Below, in pieces: positions 12,824-42,057 of a stretch of 46,600 nt of DNA; the stretch's first letter is position 1, and each line of letters opens with the position of its first letter. Where the stretch lies: IMG/VR virus record IMGVR_UViG_3300043039_000093, positions 1 through 46,600 of that record; one strand, 5' to 3'. The position numbers were made by a program, and so were the translations under genes. Under the pieces are notes generated by a model. It was not told the origin of the DNA. It searched no databases and was given only the letters and a program-made list of their open reading frames with translations. The stretch comes from a virus. Taxonomy: Duplodnaviria > Caudoviricetes.

Positions 12824-13255
12824 ATGCGTACTAATGCACAAACCAAGCTGACGAATACAGCGACCAATGAGGTTATCGTCTTATCAGACAGCCTTTACCC
12901 AGAGGGTGAGCACGACTGGTCAGCGATAGTATCAAGCAATAAGTACGCGCTTGACGGCACTCTAATAATTGAGCAGTCAGAGCGTAAAGCTGGCAGACCG
13001 TACACGATGCAAGCGCCTGCTGGTCATGGCGTGCTATCACGAGCAACGGTCAATGCGCTCAAATCTGAGCGTGACAAGCTAGGCGCGACGTTTTGGCTAG
13101 ACTATCTAGCAGATGGGGCGGTAAAGCGTGTAAAGGTGATATTTGACACGACGCAAGAGGCCATCAATGCAACGCCAATCAAAGGCTCGACCAGTCCACA
13201 GTTGACTGATTATTACAATGTAAAGCTCAGTTTCTTAGAGATACCGAGCGTGTAA
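12824..13255 (+). CDS. putative distal tail (Dit-like) protein
   Basis: E.DWS......YALDGTLIIEQ..RKAGRP.T motif typical of the small gene that follows the tape measure in related gammaproteobacterial siphophages. Confidence 0.65.
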   Translation: MRTNAQTKLTNTATNEVIVLSDSLYPEGEHDWSAIVSSNKYALDGTLIIEQSERKAGRPYTMQAPAGHGVLSRATVNALKSERDKLGATFWLDYLADGAVKRVKVIFDTTQEAINATPIKGSTSPQLTDYYNVKLSFLEIPSV

Positions 13256-13291
13256 ATGGTATGATTAAGCATACTTTTGATGGGGTGTGTT

Positions 13292-13501
13292 ATGAGTGAT
13301 GATAAAATAATTACCATAAATGACATAGATAGATTGCGTGACGAGCGCGATAGTATTTTTCGCAACATAGAAGCGTCAACAAACACATCAGAGCGCAAGT
13401 CGTTAAAATGGGCTTGGCACATAAAGCAAGCGCAGTTAAGGCTATGCACCGATAAAATCAGCTCTTTGCCTAGCAGCGATTTTGGATGCGATAATGAGTG
13501 A
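13292..13501 (+). CDS. hypothetical moron protein (69 aa)
   Basis: RBS GGGGTG; upstream extended -10 TGG-TATGAT at about 13257-13265. Confidence 0.55.
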   Translation: MSDDKIITINDIDRLRDERDSIFRNIEASTNTSERKSLKWAWHIKQAQLRLCTDKISSLPSSDFGCDNE

Positions 13502-13538
13502 TAAATAGCATTAATATAAATTATAAAAGGTGTTTAAT

Positions 13539-13643
13539 ATGAAAACTGTATCATTCGATGACTATATAGCATCACTACCTATCGAGCGTCAAAAGCGCAT
13601 TAACGATAGAGCAGCAAAACTAATTGCCAAGATTAAAAAGTAA
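13539..13643 (+). CDS. 34-aa peptide resembling the N-terminal helix of HigA-type antitoxins (not in the ORF track)
   Basis: MKTVSFDDYIASLPIERQKRINDRAAKLIAKIKK; RBS AAGGTG 6 nt upstream; terminator just downstream. Confidence 0.7.
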   Translation: MKTVSFDDYIASLPIERQKRINDRAAKLIAKIKK

Positions 13644-13661
13644 ACCCTAATAGTAAAACCA

Positions 13662-13688
13662 TAGCCCACTCATCGTAGTGGGTTTTTT
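13662..13688 (+). terminator. intrinsic terminator closing the moron
   Basis: AGCCCACT-CATCGT-AGTGGGTT plus T-run. Confidence 0.8.
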
Positions 13689-13715
13689 AATGCCTAAAAT
13701 TTGACGGATGACGAC

Positions 13716-16700
13716 ATGGCAATTACTCAAAACGATTTAGAAATACTAAAGTCTGAGATTATGGCTGATACGCCTGATGGTGGTGGATTGCCAACGGGTA
13801 TTGCTGTTATCGATGGCGTATCTAATAACTTATTCCCCGATGTATCTGACATTGACCGCTTATTGGGTCGTGTACGTCTGCGTAAAGTATCGCTAGCAGT
13901 TAAGACAGCTAATGCCGAGCTATTGCAAGCGACTCGTATGCTATTTACAGAGCTACCTGATAACCCAAATATCAGCGTGTTTGCCTTTAAAGCAACATCG
14001 TTTGCAGACCAGCGTTCAGATGCTCAGAACAAGATTGAATCATATCTAACGTTTGGCTCGCGCTGGTCAGGTCATGTGCTCGAAACACAATTAGAGGGTC
14101 AAAGAGTAATACAGATATCGCTAAATAGTACAGACGATGTGCCAAAAGTTGGCAAAGCTTTGGTACTTGTACAAAACGAAGGGCAGTCTGACGAATTTTA
14201 TCAGTATCTACGCCCCACGAATGTTGATACTGCCATGCGTAGCTTTACGCGCAACACAAATGGCAGTGTTACCTCGGTGAGCCGGACTGTTGCTACTATC
14301 GAGTTTGGCGAAGCATTGCGCTACACGTTTAACGGTCTGACGGTTTCTGAGTTTTACAATAATAGCTCAACCGCAAGACGTGCTGTATTGCGTGAGGCGC
14401 AAGTGTCTGATGCTGCTAAATATTACAGTGCATCGCGTTTGTCTGAGCCAGTAACAGCCATGAGCACAAGACAGGTGCGCCTAAACTCGGTCTATGTGCA
14501 AGTTGTGCCAAGCTCAACTACTGAGACACCACTACCACTGATTGACCCTGTGGGGCAGTCTAGTACCTTAGTACGCGCATCTGATGGCACAATTAGCATC
14601 AACAAGTCGGTATCTGTTAGCTCAACGACACCATGGCAAATTGGCTCAACCATTTATCCATCATCTATGTCGTTGACTATTAGTGGCATCACGATGACTG
14701 ATGTAGATGGCGAGTTAAAAGACTCGTCTGGCAATATCTACGCATCAGTTGATTATAGTAGTGGCCTTGTCACATGGTACAACACAGCAAATTTTGGCAT
14801 ACAAACAGTGGTGGGCAGCTTTGCACCTGCAAGCTCATTGATGCGCGTCATGCAAAGTGAGATTATCTACACGCCAGAAAGCTCGGTTGGCACAAGCTAT
14901 TTGCGCCAATTACAAGCCAAGCCAAGTCCTAGCAGTATGCGCGTCAGCTTTCAGGTTGGCGGTAATGTAACGACGATCCGTGACGATGGGCGCGGTAATC
15001 TGATTAATGATGATGGCACTGCATACGGTATTTTAGATTACGAAAATAGCTTAGTGCAGTTGGTGCTGCCAGCGATACCTGATTCAGAATCAGCCATTAT
15101 TTTTACGTATTCAACCGATTTGGGTACGGTCAGCGTTGGCGGTCAAACAATCAAAGGTGGTTTTGAGTTTGCAGCAGGTGCCTACCTACCGCCAAACTTT
15201 ACTATTACATGGGGCAGTAAAACAGCTACCGTGACAGGCAGTGTTATCAGTGGCGATGCAACAGGGACTTTTGATGGGTCAGTAATACGTATTACACCTA
15301 ACACGCTACCAGCGCCCAATACTGTATTTACCATCACGTATGACAAGCCGGTTAATGATTCACAAGTAAAAAAGGGTGATATAACTGTTCCGTTTTCATC
15401 AAAAAATACGTTTAAATTTAATATTGGCAAGGTTGATGCGGGTAAATTTAATGCACGGTTCCAAGTAAAGCAGGGTAACTGGGTAACGGATAGTTTTGAG
15501 TACGTTAAGCTGCCAGAGTGGGGTTTTACGATCAAAGATGATGGCGCAGGTAACATCGTTAAGATCGCGAACAATGGCGCTAGCCCTAACACTTGGACTA
15601 AAACCTCAAAGGACTTGGTTTTTGATATTAGCGGTACGATTAATTACGCGACAGGGGACGTAACCATCTTTTTTGGCGCAACCGCTGAGCTTATTGATGT
15701 AGTCGCTAAAATCAGAAAAGATCCTGCTTTTAAATATTTTAAGTATATTGACGCTAAAGTTGTGTCTTACTCAAACAAGTACACACCTGTGACCGCTGAC
15801 GCAACAGAAATAGATGTTATCTATAGCGCAACAGAGGACTTGTCAGGTATCACGACAGAGACATTGACGCGCAATGCAACCGAGTTAAAACTTACAATTC
15901 CTGATAGCAACGGTGCGCCCGTGTTATCAGGTTCTGTTAGCTTGTTAAGTGCAAAAGATATTAACGGCTCAATGACGGTCGATGGCGTAACTGTTGGCAG
16001 TATTGAATATACAACAGGTAACGTCACGCTCACATCGTGGGCACAAGTTGCCAACAATATCAATGTAGATAGTGCTGTCCGTGAGTTTGCGGTGCCTGCA
16101 TTGTCAAGCATTGCATTTAGGACGGCTAGCGCGCCCATTAAGATAAACACATTTTCGATTCATCTAAAAGCAGGTGGTACTACATACCAGTTGCAAGCGG
16201 ATGAGGACGGTGTGTTTGACCAAGCGGTTGCTTATGATGGATTTCTTGGTAACGACATATTGACGAATGGCATTACGGGTTTTATTGATTATCAGACTGG
16301 CGTTGTGGCGCTTTACGGCAATAATATCGATCCTGAATCTGTGACTTATACAGGCATGGCCTACAGCTATTTACCACTTGATAAAGACCTGATTGGACTT
16401 GATCCAGTGCGCTTGCCGACTGATGGTCGAGTTCCATTTGTCCGTAAAGGCGACAGCATAGCTATCACAGAGCTTAAGACAATGGCTCTGCCAACAAACG
16501 CACCAAACGACACGTTTGATTTGGGTTTTGAACGATTATCTGATGTAGGTGTTGTTGATGCTAATGGTTTAAAAGTGAGCTTTGACTATCTCGATGTTGA
16601 TTTAGATGCAGGTACTTTGACGCTTAATAGTATGTTTGATATGTCATTTTATACAGCGCCACTGACTGCTAAATATCGCATTATGGATATTGCGCTAGTC

Positions 16701-17261
16701 ATTGAGACGGATATATCAGGTCGTGTGACGCTATCAACGCCTATCACGCATGATTACAGCACATCAGCGGTATTTAGCTCAATGCTACTCGCTGGCGATA
16801 TGCAAGCTCGTGCTTACAATGTCATTAGTCAAAAGTCATGGACGAGCGTGTTTAGTGATACGTTAATTGGTGATAAAGCGACATCACAGTTGCAAGTGAC
16901 TAACAATCCGATTGTCGTGACAAACCGTGATGCAATCGAGGAGCGATGGGCGCTAGTATTTACCAGTCAAACGGCATTCAATATTATCGGTCAGACAGTT
17001 GGTCAAATTGGATCAGGATCAACAACTACGCTAACAGCACCTATTAACCCGATGACTGGGTATCCTTATTTTACAATACCTATTGCAGCGTGGGGGCTTG
17101 GTTGGTCAGCTAATAACGTGGTACGCATTAATACCGCAGCCGCTAAGTATCCTGTATGGATTGGTAACGCGATACAGCAGCATCAAGGCAGTAGCAGTGA
17201 TAACTATGATTTTACGATTGGTTATCATGCAAACATTGATAGAGACAGGGTGGTGTCATGA
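13716..17261 (+). CDS. large tail-tip / baseplate-associated structural protein (about 1181 aa)
   Basis: N-terminal SE.MADTPDGGG...NNLFPDVS.IDR..GRV.LRK; repeated G.IDY.TG.V beta modules; C-terminal LDPVRLP.DGRVP. Confidence 0.8.
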   Translation: MAITQNDLEILKSEIMADTPDGGGLPTGIAVIDGVSNNLFPDVSDIDRLLGRVRLRKVSLAVKTANAELLQATRMLFTELPDNPNISVFAFKATSFADQRSDAQNKIESYLTFGSRWSGHVLETQLEGQRVIQISLNSTDDVPKVGKALVLVQNEGQSDEFYQYLRPTNVDTAMRSFTRNTNGSVTSVSRTVATIEFGEALRYTFNGLTVSEFYNNSSTARRAVLREAQVSDAAKYYSASRLSEPVTAMSTRQVRLNSVYVQVVPSSTTETPLPLIDPVGQSSTLVRASDGTISINKSVSVSSTTPWQIGSTIYPSSMSLTISGITMTDVDGELKDSSGNIYASVDYSSGLVTWYNTANFGIQTVVGSFAPASSLMRVMQSEIIYTPESSVGTSYLRQLQAKPSPSSMRVSFQVGGNVTTIRDDGRGNLINDDGTAYGILDYENSLVQLVLPAIPDSESAIIFTYSTDLGTVSVGGQTIKGGFEFAAGAYLPPNFTITWGSKTATVTGSVISGDATGTFDGSVIRITPNTLPAPNTVFTITYDKPVNDSQVKKGDITVPFSSKNTFKFNIGKVDAGKFNARFQVKQGNWVTDSFEYVKLPEWGFTIKDDGAGNIVKIANNGASPNTWTKTSKDLVFDISGTINYATGDVTIFFGATAELIDVVAKIRKDPAFKYFKYIDAKVVSYSNKYTPVTADATEIDVIYSATEDLSGITTETLTRNATELKLTIPDSNGAPVLSGSVSLLSAKDINGSMTVDGVTVGSIEYTTGNVTLTSWAQVANNINVDSAVREFAVPALSSIAFRTASAPIKINTFSIHLKAGGTTYQLQADEDGVFDQAVAYDGFLGNDILTNGITGFIDYQTGVVALYGNNIDPESVTYTGMAYSYLPLDKDLIGLDPVRLPTDGRVPFVRKGDSIAITELKTMALPTNAPNDTFDLGFERLSDVGVVDANGLKVSFDYLDVDLDAGTLTLNSMFDMSFYTAPLTAKYRIMDIALVIETDISGRVTLSTPITHDYSTSAVFSSMLLAGDMQARAYNVISQKSWTSVFSDTLIGDKATSQLQVTNNPIVVTNRDAIEERWALVFTSQTAFNIIGQTVGQIGSGSTTTLTAPINPMTGYPYFTIPIAAWGLGWSANNVVRINTAAAKYPVWIGNAIQQHQGSSSDNYDFTIGYHANIDRDRVVS

Positions 17262-37206: not shown

Positions 37207-38115
37207 TTAGTATCTGTAGCCTCTAACAGTACACCTACATCCCTCTACAGGTTCAAAGAAGTGCTCGTCAAATGCGCGATCTAACTCACCATTCAAAATA
37301 TTAAAACCTTTGTCTTTGATGTCTAAGCAAGGTTGAGTTGAATAATTATCATCAACTACATCAAACTGACCTTGTTTGAAATAGCCATCTTCTTTTAACT
37401 TGGTAAGTGAATCAATTCTAGGCTTCATAAGCGCAAACCAAGATTTGTAGTATTTCTCATTGTTCCATCTATCGTCATCAATCTTGCAAAATTTTCCAGC
37501 CTCTATTTTGTACTGCTCATCTACCAGTTTATAGACATCACTGAATTCTTGCGGCTTAAGTTTTTCTTCGAGATCATAAAGAAACTGCAGGATATCGACA
37601 TTGGCAAACTTAAAGCGTACTGGGCCTGAAGCTAGCTTATTGTCAGACACAGTACCAAAGCGATCTGCCAGTCTGTGCTTTTGCTCATCGTTAAAAGTAG
37701 CTTGGTACCATCCCTGTAACCCAAAGAACTCAATCAAGCCACCATTGATATTTTTATCAATAGCAAAGGTTTCTGTTATGGGTAATTCGGGTGCTGGTTC
37801 AGAGTTTATAATCGGAATAGAGGTGGGCTGCGACTTCAACTCATTCAATTCACGCATTATATTTTCATAATCCTGTCTATCCTGCTGTGTTGGCGCTAGT
37901 TGACGTTGCATAGCCTGTTGTGCGGCGGGTGAGTGTAGAGGCATAATAGCGGCGCTCCCACACTGCCCACACCTTTTATTTTTTGAACGCCAGATCTCAT
38001 AAATTATGGCAGGAATGACAGCAAACCATATTAAGATCAACGTTATAATTATACTTCCTGCTACTGTGGGGTTGGACGTAGATCCGCAGTTGCTGCAATA
38101 AACTTGTTGTGCCAT
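37207..38115 (-). CDS. membrane protein with split zinc ribbon and unknown C-terminal domain
   Basis: CSNC - TM hairpin - CGQC, Gln/Pro linker, C-terminal C...H....GCRC; promoter TTGCCG-17-TAAAGT (38181-38153). Confidence 0.75.
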   Translation of the reverse strand: MAQQVYCSNCGSTSNPTVAGSIIITLILIWFAVIPAIIYEIWRSKNKRCGQCGSAAIMPLHSPAAQQAMQRQLAPTQQDRQDYENIMRELNELKSQPTSIPIINSEPAPELPITETFAIDKNINGGLIEFFGLQGWYQATFNDEQKHRLADRFGTVSDNKLASGPVRFKFANVDILQFLYDLEEKLKPQEFSDVYKLVDEQYKIEAGKFCKIDDDRWNNEKYYKSWFALMKPRIDSLTKLKEDGYFKQGQFDVVDDNYSTQPCLDIKDKGFNILNGELDRAFDEHFFEPVEGCRCTVRGYRY

Positions 38116-38229
38116 ATCACTCGCCTGAATATGTAAAATAATGATTTACTCGACTTTAACCGATTGGTAACTATTCGGCAACTGTCTATAGTTGCTATTT
38201 TATTCGAATTCAATAATTTATAGCCACAA

Positions 38230-38254
38230 GAAAACCCGCTTAATAGCGGGTTCT
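38230..38254 (-). terminator. terminator after the methyltransferase gene
   Basis: Minus strand GAACCCGC-TATTAA-GCGGGTTTTCTT. Confidence 0.75.
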
Positions 38255-38267
38255 GATGTTTTAGGTA

Positions 38268-39122
38268 TTAAGCCAACTTCAATCTTTCATGTTCAAGGAT
38301 ATCAAAGTGCGGTGAGGTAATAAAAAGCTCACTACCAATTCTTTTCTTCGCGGCGCTGTAGTTGATATCAAACTGATATTGTGCAAATTCTTTATATAGA
38401 TCGCTAATTTCTGGGGTATTGTCATAAGTAAGCAGCCACGGCAAATCAGTTTTGGCCAATTTTTCAGAAATAGCCGCATGATCTTCATGATTATAAAAAT
38501 TAGTATATAGAGACTGGCCTTTGTTGTAGTACGGAGGGTCTACCATAAGTAGTGGTTTAGGTAGTGTAATACTCTCTAGCTTCTCAATGAACTTAATTGC
38601 ATCCATATTATAAATATGAATCTTATCTTTAATCGCAGCAATTTGATGAACTTTTTTTATTAGAGCTGCCTTATTAAAACGGCAATCCATTCTATATGCA
38701 CCATCTTGCTTTTTTCCGCCAATTACTCCAGCTTTGATGATGCCAGATCGATTGGTACGATTAAGGAAGAGGGTAGAGAACGCAAGCTCTAAAGGGTCCG
38801 CAGTATCTTTAATATCCTGTATGGCTTTTTGCTTATACCATTCGTCCATATCAATTTTGGTCAAACTAATAAGTTTAGAGAGCTCTTCTGGCTGGTCGAC
38901 TATACAGCTCCATAGTGAAGCAATAGACTGATCAATATCATTGAGATGCAGCTCGTCAACTATATTATTAGTTAAAAGCCTTAAAGCGAGGCCACAGCCT
39001 CCAGCGTAAGGCTCAGCATATTGGCACAGTTCCATATCATGGCTCGCAATAACATCACGAGTCATATCGTAAATACTGGCTTTGCCACCTGGATAGCGAA
39101 GCGGTGAAAGTGAGCGTTTCAT
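38268..39122 (-). CDS. N6-adenine DNA methyltransferase (D12/Dam class)
   Basis: SPLRYPGGK, EPYAGG (SAM binding), LND, FLNR, DPPYY (catalytic). Confidence 0.93.
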   Translation of the reverse strand: MKRSLSPLRYPGGKASIYDMTRDVIASHDMELCQYAEPYAGGCGLALRLLTNNIVDELHLNDIDQSIASLWSCIVDQPEELSKLISLTKIDMDEWYKQKAIQDIKDTADPLELAFSTLFLNRTNRSGIIKAGVIGGKKQDGAYRMDCRFNKAALIKKVHQIAAIKDKIHIYNMDAIKFIEKLESITLPKPLLMVDPPYYNKGQSLYTNFYNHEDHAAISEKLAKTDLPWLLTYDNTPEISDLYKEFAQYQFDINYSAAKKRIGSELFITSPHFDILEHERLKLA

Positions 39123-39183
39123 AAAGAACCAGAGTTAGTTTTAGTCAATCTTAGCAGAAGACTTTAAAATTGGCCAATTTTAT

Positions 39184-40614
39184 TTATTTGATTTCATTTA
39201 AGATATATTGAATAATCGGCTCAATATTCATCCAATCTGTTTTTAGTTCAGAAGCCTTTGGATAAGCTCCTCCATGAGCATTTATTCCCAGAGAAACTGG
39301 CGATAAGGCTGAACCTCGACTCTCTACCAAAAGGGTTAGGTTTTTTAATGCAGTTTCTTGTGATGCCGTTAATTTATGTTCATTTCCATCTAATTTAAAA
39401 TATTTATTTACTTCTATAATTGTAAGGTCTAGCCTGTCTTTGCTGACCTTCTTATGGCCAACTATATTTAGATAATGCTTTAATATACTTTCAGTAAATA
39501 CTCTTGTAATAATGGCACAGGACAACGGGAAAGACTCGACATGAATAACTTTCAATTCATGGTAAATTGTCATTATTATCTGATTGGATGTTTTACAATA
39601 AAATTCATTCGTAAATATGTACTTTCTATTATTAGGGTTCTTTGAGGATCTTTGTCTGCTTGGGTTGGTTGGTTCTTCTTTTTGCTTTAATGGGTCTTGC
39701 TCACTAATGCTGGCAGTGCTTGAATCATTAGTATTTTGATGACCTTCTGTATCAACTGCAATTTCAGTATCATTCTTTCCCTGATCACCAGCATTAACAT
39801 CTTGCTCTATTTTATTTAAAGTATAGCTATCAACCCTCTCTACTTCTTTTAGATAAGCATCGTAAAGATAGTTTCCATATTTTATGTAATCATCTTTATT
39901 AGACCTAGAGCTGACTGCCTTGTTATTTTTGTCTGCTACGTCCAAGATAAACTTCTCTAATGCTAAGATAAAATCTTCTTTAGGTATGTCAATTACTATT
40001 TCCAAATCCTTAGTATTGGACCTCAGCCCTATAGAGTTCCTAAAAGCTGGATTAGCTAAAAATCTTGTAACTGTGGTTAGTATTCCTTCTGTTTCAGCTT
40101 CTTTTATATCGTTTTTCTTAGCAAAATCGATAATGCTCACAGCTAATGTATTGTTGTTCGAGCGCCCACCCTCGAACCTTGTTTTTTGTTCTGCGCTCCA
40201 AGATTTAGTGCCAACTCCATTTTGTTGGCCACTATGTTTTCTTTCTAGCCATAAATTCGCATCTTCTCGCTTATCAAACACTTCACACTCAACATCCACC
40301 AACTTAGTGTTATACCTCTTTAAAATATCTTTGATTCTTTTTGAATATGGCGGTAACAAATCTGGATTTTCTAGAAGCTTAAGAGCACTTGCTCTTCTAT
40401 TACCCTCAAGAACAACATATCCTACAATATCCTCAAAAACAGCAATATCCTCAATGGGGCTCAGCCAGTTTTTTGCTATATCCTCCAATAGATTCATTAT
40501 CTGTTCTTTATCCATCATGTGTTCTATGATTGATATCTCATTCTCCATAATACTAGGTAATCTTGGGTTTTTTATATCAAGAACTAGTTTGTCAATTTTA
40601 AGTTTTCTTTTCAT
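39184..40614 (-). CDS. ParB/sulfiredoxin-like N-terminal domain plus HEPN-like C-terminal domain (candidate defence effector)
   Basis: LD.KNPRL, VVLEGNRR..ALKLL; polar linker; C-terminal EL......FP.SCA..TR.F.E...NAHG; AT-rich. Confidence 0.7.
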   Translation of the reverse strand: MKRKLKIDKLVLDIKNPRLPSIMENEISIIEHMMDKEQIMNLLEDIAKNWLSPIEDIAVFEDIVGYVVLEGNRRASALKLLENPDLLPPYSKRIKDILKRYNTKLVDVECEVFDKREDANLWLERKHSGQQNGVGTKSWSAEQKTRFEGGRSNNNTLAVSIIDFAKKNDIKEAETEGILTTVTRFLANPAFRNSIGLRSNTKDLEIVIDIPKEDFILALEKFILDVADKNNKAVSSRSNKDDYIKYGNYLYDAYLKEVERVDSYTLNKIEQDVNAGDQGKNDTEIAVDTEGHQNTNDSSTASISEQDPLKQKEEPTNPSRQRSSKNPNNRKYIFTNEFYCKTSNQIIMTIYHELKVIHVESFPLSCAIITRVFTESILKHYLNIVGHKKVSKDRLDLTIIEVNKYFKLDGNEHKLTASQETALKNLTLLVESRGSALSPVSLGINAHGGAYPKASELKTDWMNIEPIIQYILNEIK

Positions 40615-40734
40615 TACATTCCCTATAATAAATGGCTTTATTTCTAAAATATAAAATTATTATTTTCCCGATTAAGTGCTTTTGAGCAGCTCTACTCGCC
40701 ACCCGCTAGTCCCAATCCAACGCTTCACACACCC

Positions 40735-41124
40735 TCAAGAATACTTCCTCTGCTTATCACATAGCTGCATCCCAACCTCTTTAGCATCACTCAAGTCAGC
40801 GCCTTCCTTAATGCTGTAAGGCACGTTTGGAGTCAGACCAGCTTGCTTCAGCGATTCTTTAGCTGCCTTATTAAGCGGAGTACCAATATAGGATTCATCA
40901 ATATACACTGCAGGTTTGAAATATACTTCAGAACCAAACTCTGGATGAATGCTACACGAGATCGCACCAACTACAGTAAACGGGTAAGGTGTTTTATAAT
41001 CCGTTCCCCAAAATGATTCATGTACTATGGTAATGCCAAAGTCACTATTTTGATCTTCAGGAATGCACGCAGCTAACGATAAGGCAGCTATACTAATTAA
41101 CCACCAGGACAAATTGATTCGCAT
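40735..41124 (-). CDS. lipoprotein, YebY/DUF2511-like
   Basis: LSLAA-C lipobox; YPFTV.G.ISC, PLN.AA, G..LC. Confidence 0.6.
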   Translation of the reverse strand: MRINLSWWLISIAALSLAACIPEDQNSDFGITIVHESFWGTDYKTPYPFTVVGAISCSIHPEFGSEVYFKPAVYIDESYIGTPLNKAAKESLKQAGLTPNVPYSIKEGADLSDAKEVGMQLCDKQRKYS

Positions 41125-41390
41125 GGTACGCCATCCTTGTCGCGGTCTAATCTAGTGTTACCACACTTCAACGCCTGCTTAGCTTGCTCACAATTAGCCA
41201 TCTGACCACAAACACTTGGCAGACCTTTGCATTGCGAACCACCAGTGCCTTTGGCGAATAGCGGATGATCAACTTCGACAGATTCCTTCAAAACCGTATT
41301 GCTTTGAAATGGGTTATCTATCGTAGTAACGCCGGCATTGGACGATAAAGCGAACACAGATAGTGCCGCGGCTAGTATTAATTTTTTCAT
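41097..41390 (-). CDS. secreted Excalibur calcium-binding domain protein
   Basis: Signal peptide; C.QM.NC.QA...L.CG..RLDRDKDGVPCE. Confidence 0.9.
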   Translation of the reverse strand: MKKLILAAALSVFALSSNAGVTTIDNPFQSNTVLKESVEVDHPLFAKGTGGSQCKGLPSVCGQMANCEQAKQALKCGNTRLDRDKDGVPCESICPGG

Positions 41391-41417
41391 GGGTGAATTC
41401 CTTTTCTAGAAATTATC

Positions 41418-41936
41418 TTAATTACTATTCAACATTAGTGACTCCATAAATTCTTCGTAACTATCAAGAATTTCAACCTCCTTGATAGCTATAGAGGCAC
41501 AAGCGTTTTCAATATTATAGCCACCAACAGTTTCAGGGAAAGCATAAGAAAAGTCTGACTCAGACAACATTGTTTTTTTGAATTGTTGACTGTTAATAAC
41601 CTCATCTTTAAAGCCATAATCTACACGCGCGTTGACATAATATGTTTGATCGTCACATGAAATAAACCATTGCTGCTTTGAATAATACAGTCCCTTTTTA
41701 CGGATTGGATTGTTATTTATATACGTATATTGAAAAATGGCAGAAATATACTTAGGTTTATCTTTAGTGCTACTAAAGCTACTGCCTCCATACACCCTAA
41801 TATCCTGTCTTTTAACTGAATCATAATCTAAGAATGTTTGCATTTGTTTATCGTCAGACTTACCTAAGTCTATCCATTCAACAGCGCTAGATACCACTGG
41901 TAAAGCCAATAAGACTGCTAACAAAACTTTATTCAT
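41418..41936 (-). CDS. secreted protein (surface-adhesin E-like)
   Basis: Signal peptide ending VSSA; W..LG......FLD.DSV.R...ISC...PET.G.....AC. Confidence 0.6.
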   Translation of the reverse strand: MNKVLLAVLLALPVVSSAVEWIDLGKSDDKQMQTFLDYDSVKRQDIRVYGGSSFSSTKDKPKYISAIFQYTYINNNPIRKKGLYYSKQQWFISCDDQTYYVNARVDYGFKDEVINSQQFKKTMLSESDFSYAFPETVGGYNIENACASIAIKEVEILDSYEEFMESLMLNSN

Positions 41937-42057
41937 AACCACATCCTTGTGTTATTCAAAATCCAACGCTTCCCGATACACGCACCATCCCAATGGCAGG
42001 GTGTCGACTGGCTTGGCGAACTTTAGAAAGTGGCATATCCATATGTAAGCCCAGTCA

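Follow-up and report, generated by a model that had tools for sequence, protein, structure and literature searches.

A mobile 34-residue phage microgene that matches the N-terminal module of Gp49-partner HigA antitoxins

HigB toxins of the Gp49 type (PF05973) and their XRE/HigA antitoxins have been described as HigBA1/2 in Acinetobacter (PMC5906591), as HigA2/HigA3 in M. tuberculosis (PDB: 7EWC, 6LTY) and as HigBA in S. pneumoniae (PDB: 6AF3/6AF4). The Acinetobacter HigB is presented in the passages concerned of PMC5906591 as a toxic RNase, and the two antitoxin variants of that organism cross-neutralise at a difference of 42-45%. HigB2 and HigB3 of M. tuberculosis, which are more than 40% identical to the Acinetobacter toxin, are not toxic according to the relevant part of PMC9098466. 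How antitoxin and toxin meet is described for pneumococcal HigBA in portions of PMC7984235: strand 1 (residues 6-9), helix 1 (10-17) and helix 2 (20-42) of HigA bind strand 1 and helices 1-2 of the toxin, all the HigA interface residues listed there lie within 10-34, the active site of the toxin is not occluded by the antitoxin, and helix-mimicking peptides, two of them from HigA, freed the toxin activity. In V. cholerae, a peptide of HigA2 residues 3-22 alone inhibits its toxin, a member of the PF06296 family (excerpts of PMC5416850). Documented anti-phage activity belongs to a three-gene HigBAC, which responds to the major tail protein by aborting siphophage infection (10.1101/2024.02.24.581848, passages concerned), whereas the Psychrobacter pairs discussed below consist of two genes.

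Phage orphan antitoxins are a known kind. T4 Dmd, which acts against RnlA/LsoA, ICP1 Gp145 against DarT, T4 TifA against ToxN, as well as orphan DarG-like enzymes of T-even phages and T4 AdfM, are carried without a linked toxin and have been shown experimentally to counter host toxin-antitoxin systems, as the relevant sections of PMC13716836, PMC13728456 and 10.1101/2023.12.14.571748 describe; by the same sections, the T-even orphan DarG-like enzyme also came from a bacterial antitoxin by domain loss. The peptide described here resembles them in having no linked toxin. They differ from it in acting on other toxins and in being folded proteins or enzymes of lytic phages, and none is described in the passages concerned as a HigA fragment directed against a RelE-superfamily RNase. 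One passage of a review (PMC7354431) mentions a mycobacteriophage orphan gene in which 18 of 31 residues match HigA3 along a stretch said to be the toxin-binding interface. Like our peptide, it is a phage gene with no neighbouring toxin and with similarity to a Gp49-partner antitoxin, but it is a BLAST observation, and that passage gives neither its length nor its HTH status. A phage gene reduced to the toxin-binding module of HigA was not found described in open-access literature listings.

Here, we have analysed a complete virus record with terminal repeats (the window, 46,600 nucleotides; 46.6 kb), whose integrase, CI-like repressor, terminase, capsid and tail genes mark it as a temperate phage of the long-tailed type. 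Psychrobacter is the most likely host, as Psychrobacter phage vB_PmaS_Y8A is the closest named relative for the region and a Psychrobacter sp. genome carries a near-identical copy of the peptide gene. The original prediction placed a 34-residue ORF with the ribosome-binding site AAGGTG and a clean stop among the tail genes, and coordinates, spacing and neighbours confirm it: the microgene (13539..13643, + strand) opens with ATG at 13539 and closes with TAA at 13643, the Shine-Dalgarno-like AAGGTG (13527..13532, +) ends 6 nt 5' of the ATG, and the gene lies 3' of the major tail gene (phrog_807) and 5' of more tail genes. Other copies of the gene carry AAGGAG, AAGGCG, GAGGT or AGGA as ribosome-binding site. 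The terminator that had been credited to the gene is present as an intrinsic-terminator-like hairpin and T-run (13663..13690, +; -10.7 kcal/mol), but it closes the accessory slot in which the gene sits and belongs to the site. The peptide has no Pfam or PHROG match at E 0.01, looser cut-offs in NCBIfam and Pfam gave chance-level matches, and tblastn against named phages and plasmids gave matches of E 4-9 at best. Unnamed short clusters of the ESM Atlas at 0.93-0.94 were set aside, their recognition value being under the reliable range. One 247-nt contig spans the ORF, in a run whose RNA status is guessed, and six runs of an expression look-up contained 6-9% of the words of the ORF.

The slot is bounded by two conserved genes of unknown function, one of 143 residues on the left (phrog_4408; 12824..13255, +) and one of about 1,180 residues in the tail region on the right (phrog_6128; 13701..17261, +). 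At its head lies a sigma-70-like promoter with extended -10 (13236..13265, +), recognised by consensus match only, and TG-n-TAT(A/G)AT is present at this position in most filled slots. We surveyed 25 viral loci retrieved through the left-flank gene. The slot is empty in 13 of them, with 68-75 bp that already include the hairpin and T-run, and this is also the form in Y8A; the other 12 have small ORFs in it, most of them unrelated and, as a rule, preceded by an extended -10 motif. The peptide occupies it in two (L004, L018). Upstream of the peptide gene in the same slot is an ORF of no known family (69-74 aa; 13277..13501, +), followed by a four-codon stub (13494..13508, +) that starts with Met-Ser-Asp like other slot genes and is likely a scar of cassette exchange. 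The 74-residue ORF occurs without the peptide in L013, L014 and L016, and the peptide without the ORF in L004, L018, L031, L034 and L079; since the two assort independently, the ORF is, judged by its distribution, not the partner of the peptide.

The slot (13256-13715, together with loci L004-L028) looks like a hotspot of accessory genes, many of which begin with Met-Ser-Asp and have overlapping stop-start junctions, as if cassettes were exchanged via a junction that they have in common; counter-defence may also be the role of other genes in the slot. Between the late-control region and the terminase genes, two small genes (DUF2158, DUF6953) at 2092-2554 likely mark a second accessory slot, and this region corresponds to where L034 carries the peptide. 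On the minus strand, 37207-41942 holds a DNA methyltransferase, a 476-residue phrog_9592 protein, an Excalibur-domain protein and several unknown ORFs next to the repressor, possibly a cargo or defence island.

Pattern scans for the peptide gave four viral loci, one of 34 genome loci and six metagenome loci, to which database proteins were added; the pattern matches L036 and L037 were dropped, since they lie by chance within a 314-aa ORF. The 21 peptides, 34-43 residues long, comprise 20 distinct sequences; 20 of the first 32 alignment columns are invariant, and the sequence is free past residue 32. In related phages the gene occupies four genomic sites, namely the tail slot, a position behind a GH19 endolysin (L031) in a phage whose own tail slot (L011) is empty, one behind an antiterminator Q gene (L034) and one behind a T5orf172-domain gene (L123), a similar gene end being seen in L126 and L128. 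Homologues that stop at the same point with Ka/Ks<1, which the original prediction had named as support, were found: six genes pooled gave a pS of 0.40 and a pN of 0.049, with at least 20 synonymous against 10 non-synonymous changes (p=1.8e-7), and a dN/dS of about 0.09 that is biased downward because three of the six were found by amino-acid motif searches. The same excess is seen with two copies found by synteny alone (synonymous to non-synonymous changes of 9:3, 6:3 and 11:2). The peptide gene is real, mobile and under purifying selection. No remnant of an HTH was detected in any frame downstream of the gene in eight of eight copies (best 0.0 bits), against 19.3 bits for the control, a frameshifted antitoxin (L045); a 57-aa truncated antitoxin copy in a Psychrobacter genome (L087) is itself without an HTH remnant. 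Codons 14-20 (13578-13598) have zero synonymous changes in eight of eight copies despite the overall pS of about 0.4, which reflects either chance or an overlapping DNA or RNA signal.

That the peptide begins like a HigA-type antitoxin had been suggested from a residue pattern, and this similarity is borne out. Among 154 Psychrobacter genomes 13 match the peptide, one through a prophage copy and 12 through the N-terminus of a 99-aa XRE protein, which is full length with its HTH in 11 cases and truncated in one. The best match, the N-terminus of L080, is identical at 17 of 32 positions. The 99-aa XRE gene lies directly behind an intact Gp49 toxin (PF05973) in four genomes; in one the toxin is split by transposase-like ORFs, and in six the locus holds no toxin. 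Intact pairs of this best-matching subfamily are thus confined to 4 of the 154 genomes; PF05973 is matched in 48. Between the peptide gene and some antitoxin 5' ends, DNA similarity reaches 70-75% over 60-74 nt. A motif derived from the peptide recovered 34 GTDB loci, of which 22 are HTH proteins, 19 of these directly behind a Gp49-like toxin, as judged with profiles seeded in part with these very loci. A search of 251 genomes of the family gave 13 with a match, and the seven new loci examined are all toxin-antitoxin pairs. The peptide is 53% identical to the Psychrobacter L080 N-terminus and 55% to an alphaproteobacterial one, which makes both lineages candidate donors.

Profile comparisons place this likeness beyond chance. 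An antitoxin-N-terminus profile, with seeds partly chosen through the peptide, gave the peptide 39.0 bits, against at most 12.9 in 20,000 shuffles and 5.2 for the next of 487 ORFs in the window. Profiles from five further seed sets gave 35.6 bits (14 antitoxins picked via their toxin), 43.4 bits (the three subfamily-B members among those 14), 19.9 bits (five distant antitoxins) and 23.1 bits (16 mixed antitoxins), in each case reached by 0 of 20,000 shuffles; the fifth, built from 11 antitoxins of subfamily A, the commoner one in Psychrobacter, gave 2.4 bits, which 575 of 20,000 shuffles reach and which is not significant. Psychrobacter toxins such as those of L080, L083, L084 and L085 are of subfamily B. 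The peptide ends where the HTH begins in the antitoxins. From the N-terminal matches, the profile scores and this end point, the peptide is by sequence the pre-HTH module of the Gp49-partner XRE antitoxin family, closest to one subfamily.

The peptide is not itself a member of that family, because the HTH and the linked toxin are missing. The absence of the HTH, already part of the original prediction, stands: no Pfam HTH is found in the peptide, and no C-terminal XRE HTH or dimerisation region follows its eight copies. Nor was a RelE-like toxin found in the genome, where family libraries and six-frame scans for Gp49-like frames detected no Gp49/RelE-type toxin. No Gp49 toxin gene lies directly upstream of the peptide gene at the loci examined, no Gp49-like frame was seen in four other carrier records (three of them incomplete), and none of these toxins was found in the one lysogen genome examined (G001). 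What we observe is a phage gene under selection with no cognate toxin in the phage and a matching toxin in the host lineage. Compared with the known XRE/HigA antitoxins, the peptide has the homologous strand-helix-helix N-terminus and is predicted to use the same toxin surface; unlike them it is devoid of HTH, dimerisation strand, linked toxin gene and toxin-first operon, and it is carried by phages as a mobile 105-nt gene. It shares with the V. cholerae HigA2 3-22 peptide (PMC5416850, passages concerned) the character of an N-terminal antitoxin peptide free of the HTH, there neutralising a RelE-superfamily toxin, but the latter is a laboratory fragment of a cognate antitoxin acting on a PF06296, not a PF05973, toxin; PDB searches gave no sequence match between the two.

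Among the neighbours of matching genes in host genomes are integrase, restriction-modification and satellite-like primase genes. The matching subfamily also has full-length 99-aa antitoxins that occur without a toxin (L086, L088, L090 and L091, also L081 and L089); such toxinless antitoxins are mostly beside restriction-modification genes, and four adjoin DUF3631/DUF927 primase-like genes of satellite-like elements.

To understand how the peptide may meet a toxin, we consider its predicted structure. The peptide had been described as a single helix, which is not what the model gives: residues 1-5 form an extended strand, followed by a helix (6-12), a Leu-Pro turn and a second helix (15-33), with a mean pLDDT of 93.7. 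The L080 toxin was modelled with a pLDDT of 94.8, and among solved folds S. pneumoniae HigB comes closest to it (6AF4; E 1.4e-5, 20% identity); PDB sequence searches gave no significant match to the peptide, to its alignment or to the toxin. A complex with a host toxin, as originally proposed, is predicted for the one toxin covered, that of Psychrobacter L080: three runs gave it a score of 0.72, and the best of three controls scored 0.01. Of 157 solved complexes 116 attain the mark applied, as do 2 of 215 mismatched pairs; the runs agree in at least 96% of contacts with partner pLDDT of at least 84, and the peptide alignment had 26 rows, 20 of them antitoxin N-termini.

In the predicted complex, residues 1-10 and 17-32 of the peptide pack on strand 1 and helix 2 of the toxin. 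Contacts are made by peptide residues 1-7, 9-10, 17, 20-22, 24-25, 28-29 and 32 with toxin residues 3-8, 11, 23-35, 39, 43, 80-81 and 108. The predicted site is the surface covered by HigA in the solved S. pneumoniae complex, which supports the antitoxin reading; because of this same match, the pass may in part reflect likeness to 6AF4 and thus memory of it, and the antitoxin N-termini in the peptide alignment also count against the score. The predicted site avoids the invariant residues K56, E57, R59, R68, F93 and Y94 of the toxin, so any inhibition would act indirectly and could depend on the full dimer.

We argue that the peptide is rather probably a minimal trans-acting antitoxin against non-cognate Gp49/HigB toxins. 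It would represent a stand-alone N-terminal toxin-binding module of a Moraxellaceae HigA-type (XRE) antitoxin, predicted to bind Gp49/HigB RNases that the phage does not encode and likely to neutralise them in trans; because it is predicted to bind an RNA-cutting toxin, the gene likely lets the phage silence a bacterial toxin-antitoxin system. The peptide would be made from the slot promoter and the late operon, its binding would block the toxin, and the absence of an HTH would keep it from dimerising and from repressing the host operon. The original interpretation, a retained neutralising segment that disarms HigBA modules, is supported in ancestry, selection and predicted binding. It could mop up toxin freed when the host antitoxin declines during infection or induction, a counter-defence role that we regard as plausible, somewhat short of probable. 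Alternatively, it could mop up toxin when a higBA-bearing plasmid or satellite is lost from a lysogen, though such an anti-addiction role seems unlikely. The distance across which the Acinetobacter antitoxins cross-neutralise (42-45%) is about that between the peptide and the host antitoxin. More broadly, and tentatively, phages may cut a type II antitoxin down to its 32-residue toxin-binding module and move this from one accessory slot to another, as a broad inhibitor of Gp49/HigB RNases that is blind to promoters.

An antitoxin-derived peptide could have been exapted to bind another host or phage protein, its toxin binding being vestigial. Positions 11-16, 18, 19 and 23, outside the predicted interface, are as invariant as the interface itself, intact target pairs are rare (4 of 154 sampled genomes), the carriers examined have no Gp49 toxin, and antitoxin N-termini can have second roles, HigA2 also contacting DNA in the passages concerned of PMC11006873. 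We nevertheless consider exaptation rather unlikely: the toxin-contacting hydrophobic residues F6, Y9, I21, A25, L28 and I32 are kept or conservatively changed across copies, the complex prediction passes, and mobile elements in the genus repeatedly carry full-length orphans of the same antitoxin subfamily, which suggests that neutralising a Gp49 toxin is worth keeping. More improbable is that the peptide binds the toxin without silencing it and ousts the host HigA, lifting co-repression or releasing the RNase as a trigger against competing phages or elements. Such a displacing role is conceivable because the predicted site is far from the putative active centre and short HigA mimics freed the pneumococcal toxin: HigA- and HigB-mimicking peptides broke pneumococcal HigBA and restored RNase activity (PMC7984235, part concerned), and the Acinetobacter toxin works as a co-repressor (PMC5906591, likewise). 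The pneumococcal mimics are, however, single interface helices, whereas the phage peptide has the whole strand-helix-helix interface, and, with the gene in the late region, toxin set free would probably reach late mRNAs of the phage itself.

The gene might instead be what is left, without function, of a higBA operon in decay. Bacteria commonly carry truncated antitoxin N-termini, which make up 60 of 70 short matches (28 of them still extending into the HTH start), many of the short pieces look like frameshift or contig-end fragments, and the 57-aa copy in Psychrobacter is one such truncation. The dN/dS, the four insertion sites with their ribosome-binding sites and the absence of an HTH remnant behind all eight copies, set against the frameshifted control, largely refute this reading, which is very improbable. 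We give as little credence to a cognate antitoxin of an unrecognised phage toxin, such as the neighbouring 74-aa ORF, even though a small ORF of unknown family precedes the peptide in the slot. Cognate antitoxins with no DNA-binding domain exist in prophages, PaaA2 among them. The PaaA2-ParE2 pair is described in the passage concerned of PMC8630535. However, the ORF and the peptide each occur without the other, and no Gp49-like frame is found in the genome, the four carrier records, three of them incomplete, or the lysogen genome.

The 70 short matches to the antitoxin family comprise 10 instances of the present peptide, 28 pieces that extend into the HTH start and 32 with different tails. P0034 and P0038 carry the module joined to a DNA-binding tail that weakly resembles BrnA (76 aa, E 0.0019), and no viral locus was found for P0034, a longer relative of the peptide. 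P0035 has two tandem modules in 84 residues and no DNA-binding domain. HTH-less modules occur in unrelated bacteria (L047, L057, L064, L073; P0062, P0068, P0073, P0103-P0105), and possibly are independent micro-antitoxins or remnants; that of L047 sits behind a Gp49-like toxin, and one recurring group of 61-75 residues shares an acidic tail.

On the question of whether ordinary higBA pairs defend against phages, a strongly selected phage gene that matches their antitoxin is indirect evidence that phages encounter these toxins. The peptide also bears on whether an N-terminal module alone inhibits a Gp49 toxin whose active site the antitoxin leaves uncovered. It points to a class of counter-defence genes too small for normal gene-calling cut-offs and without a match among Pfam, PHROG and NCBIfam families. 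If phages do prune antitoxins to this module, this would be a first instance of phage counter-defence aimed at RelE-superfamily toxins, plain two-gene higBA pairs of the Gp49 type would be anti-phage systems, and the many short HTH-less pieces in databases, including the tandem P0035, would be candidates for a general class of micro-antitoxins.
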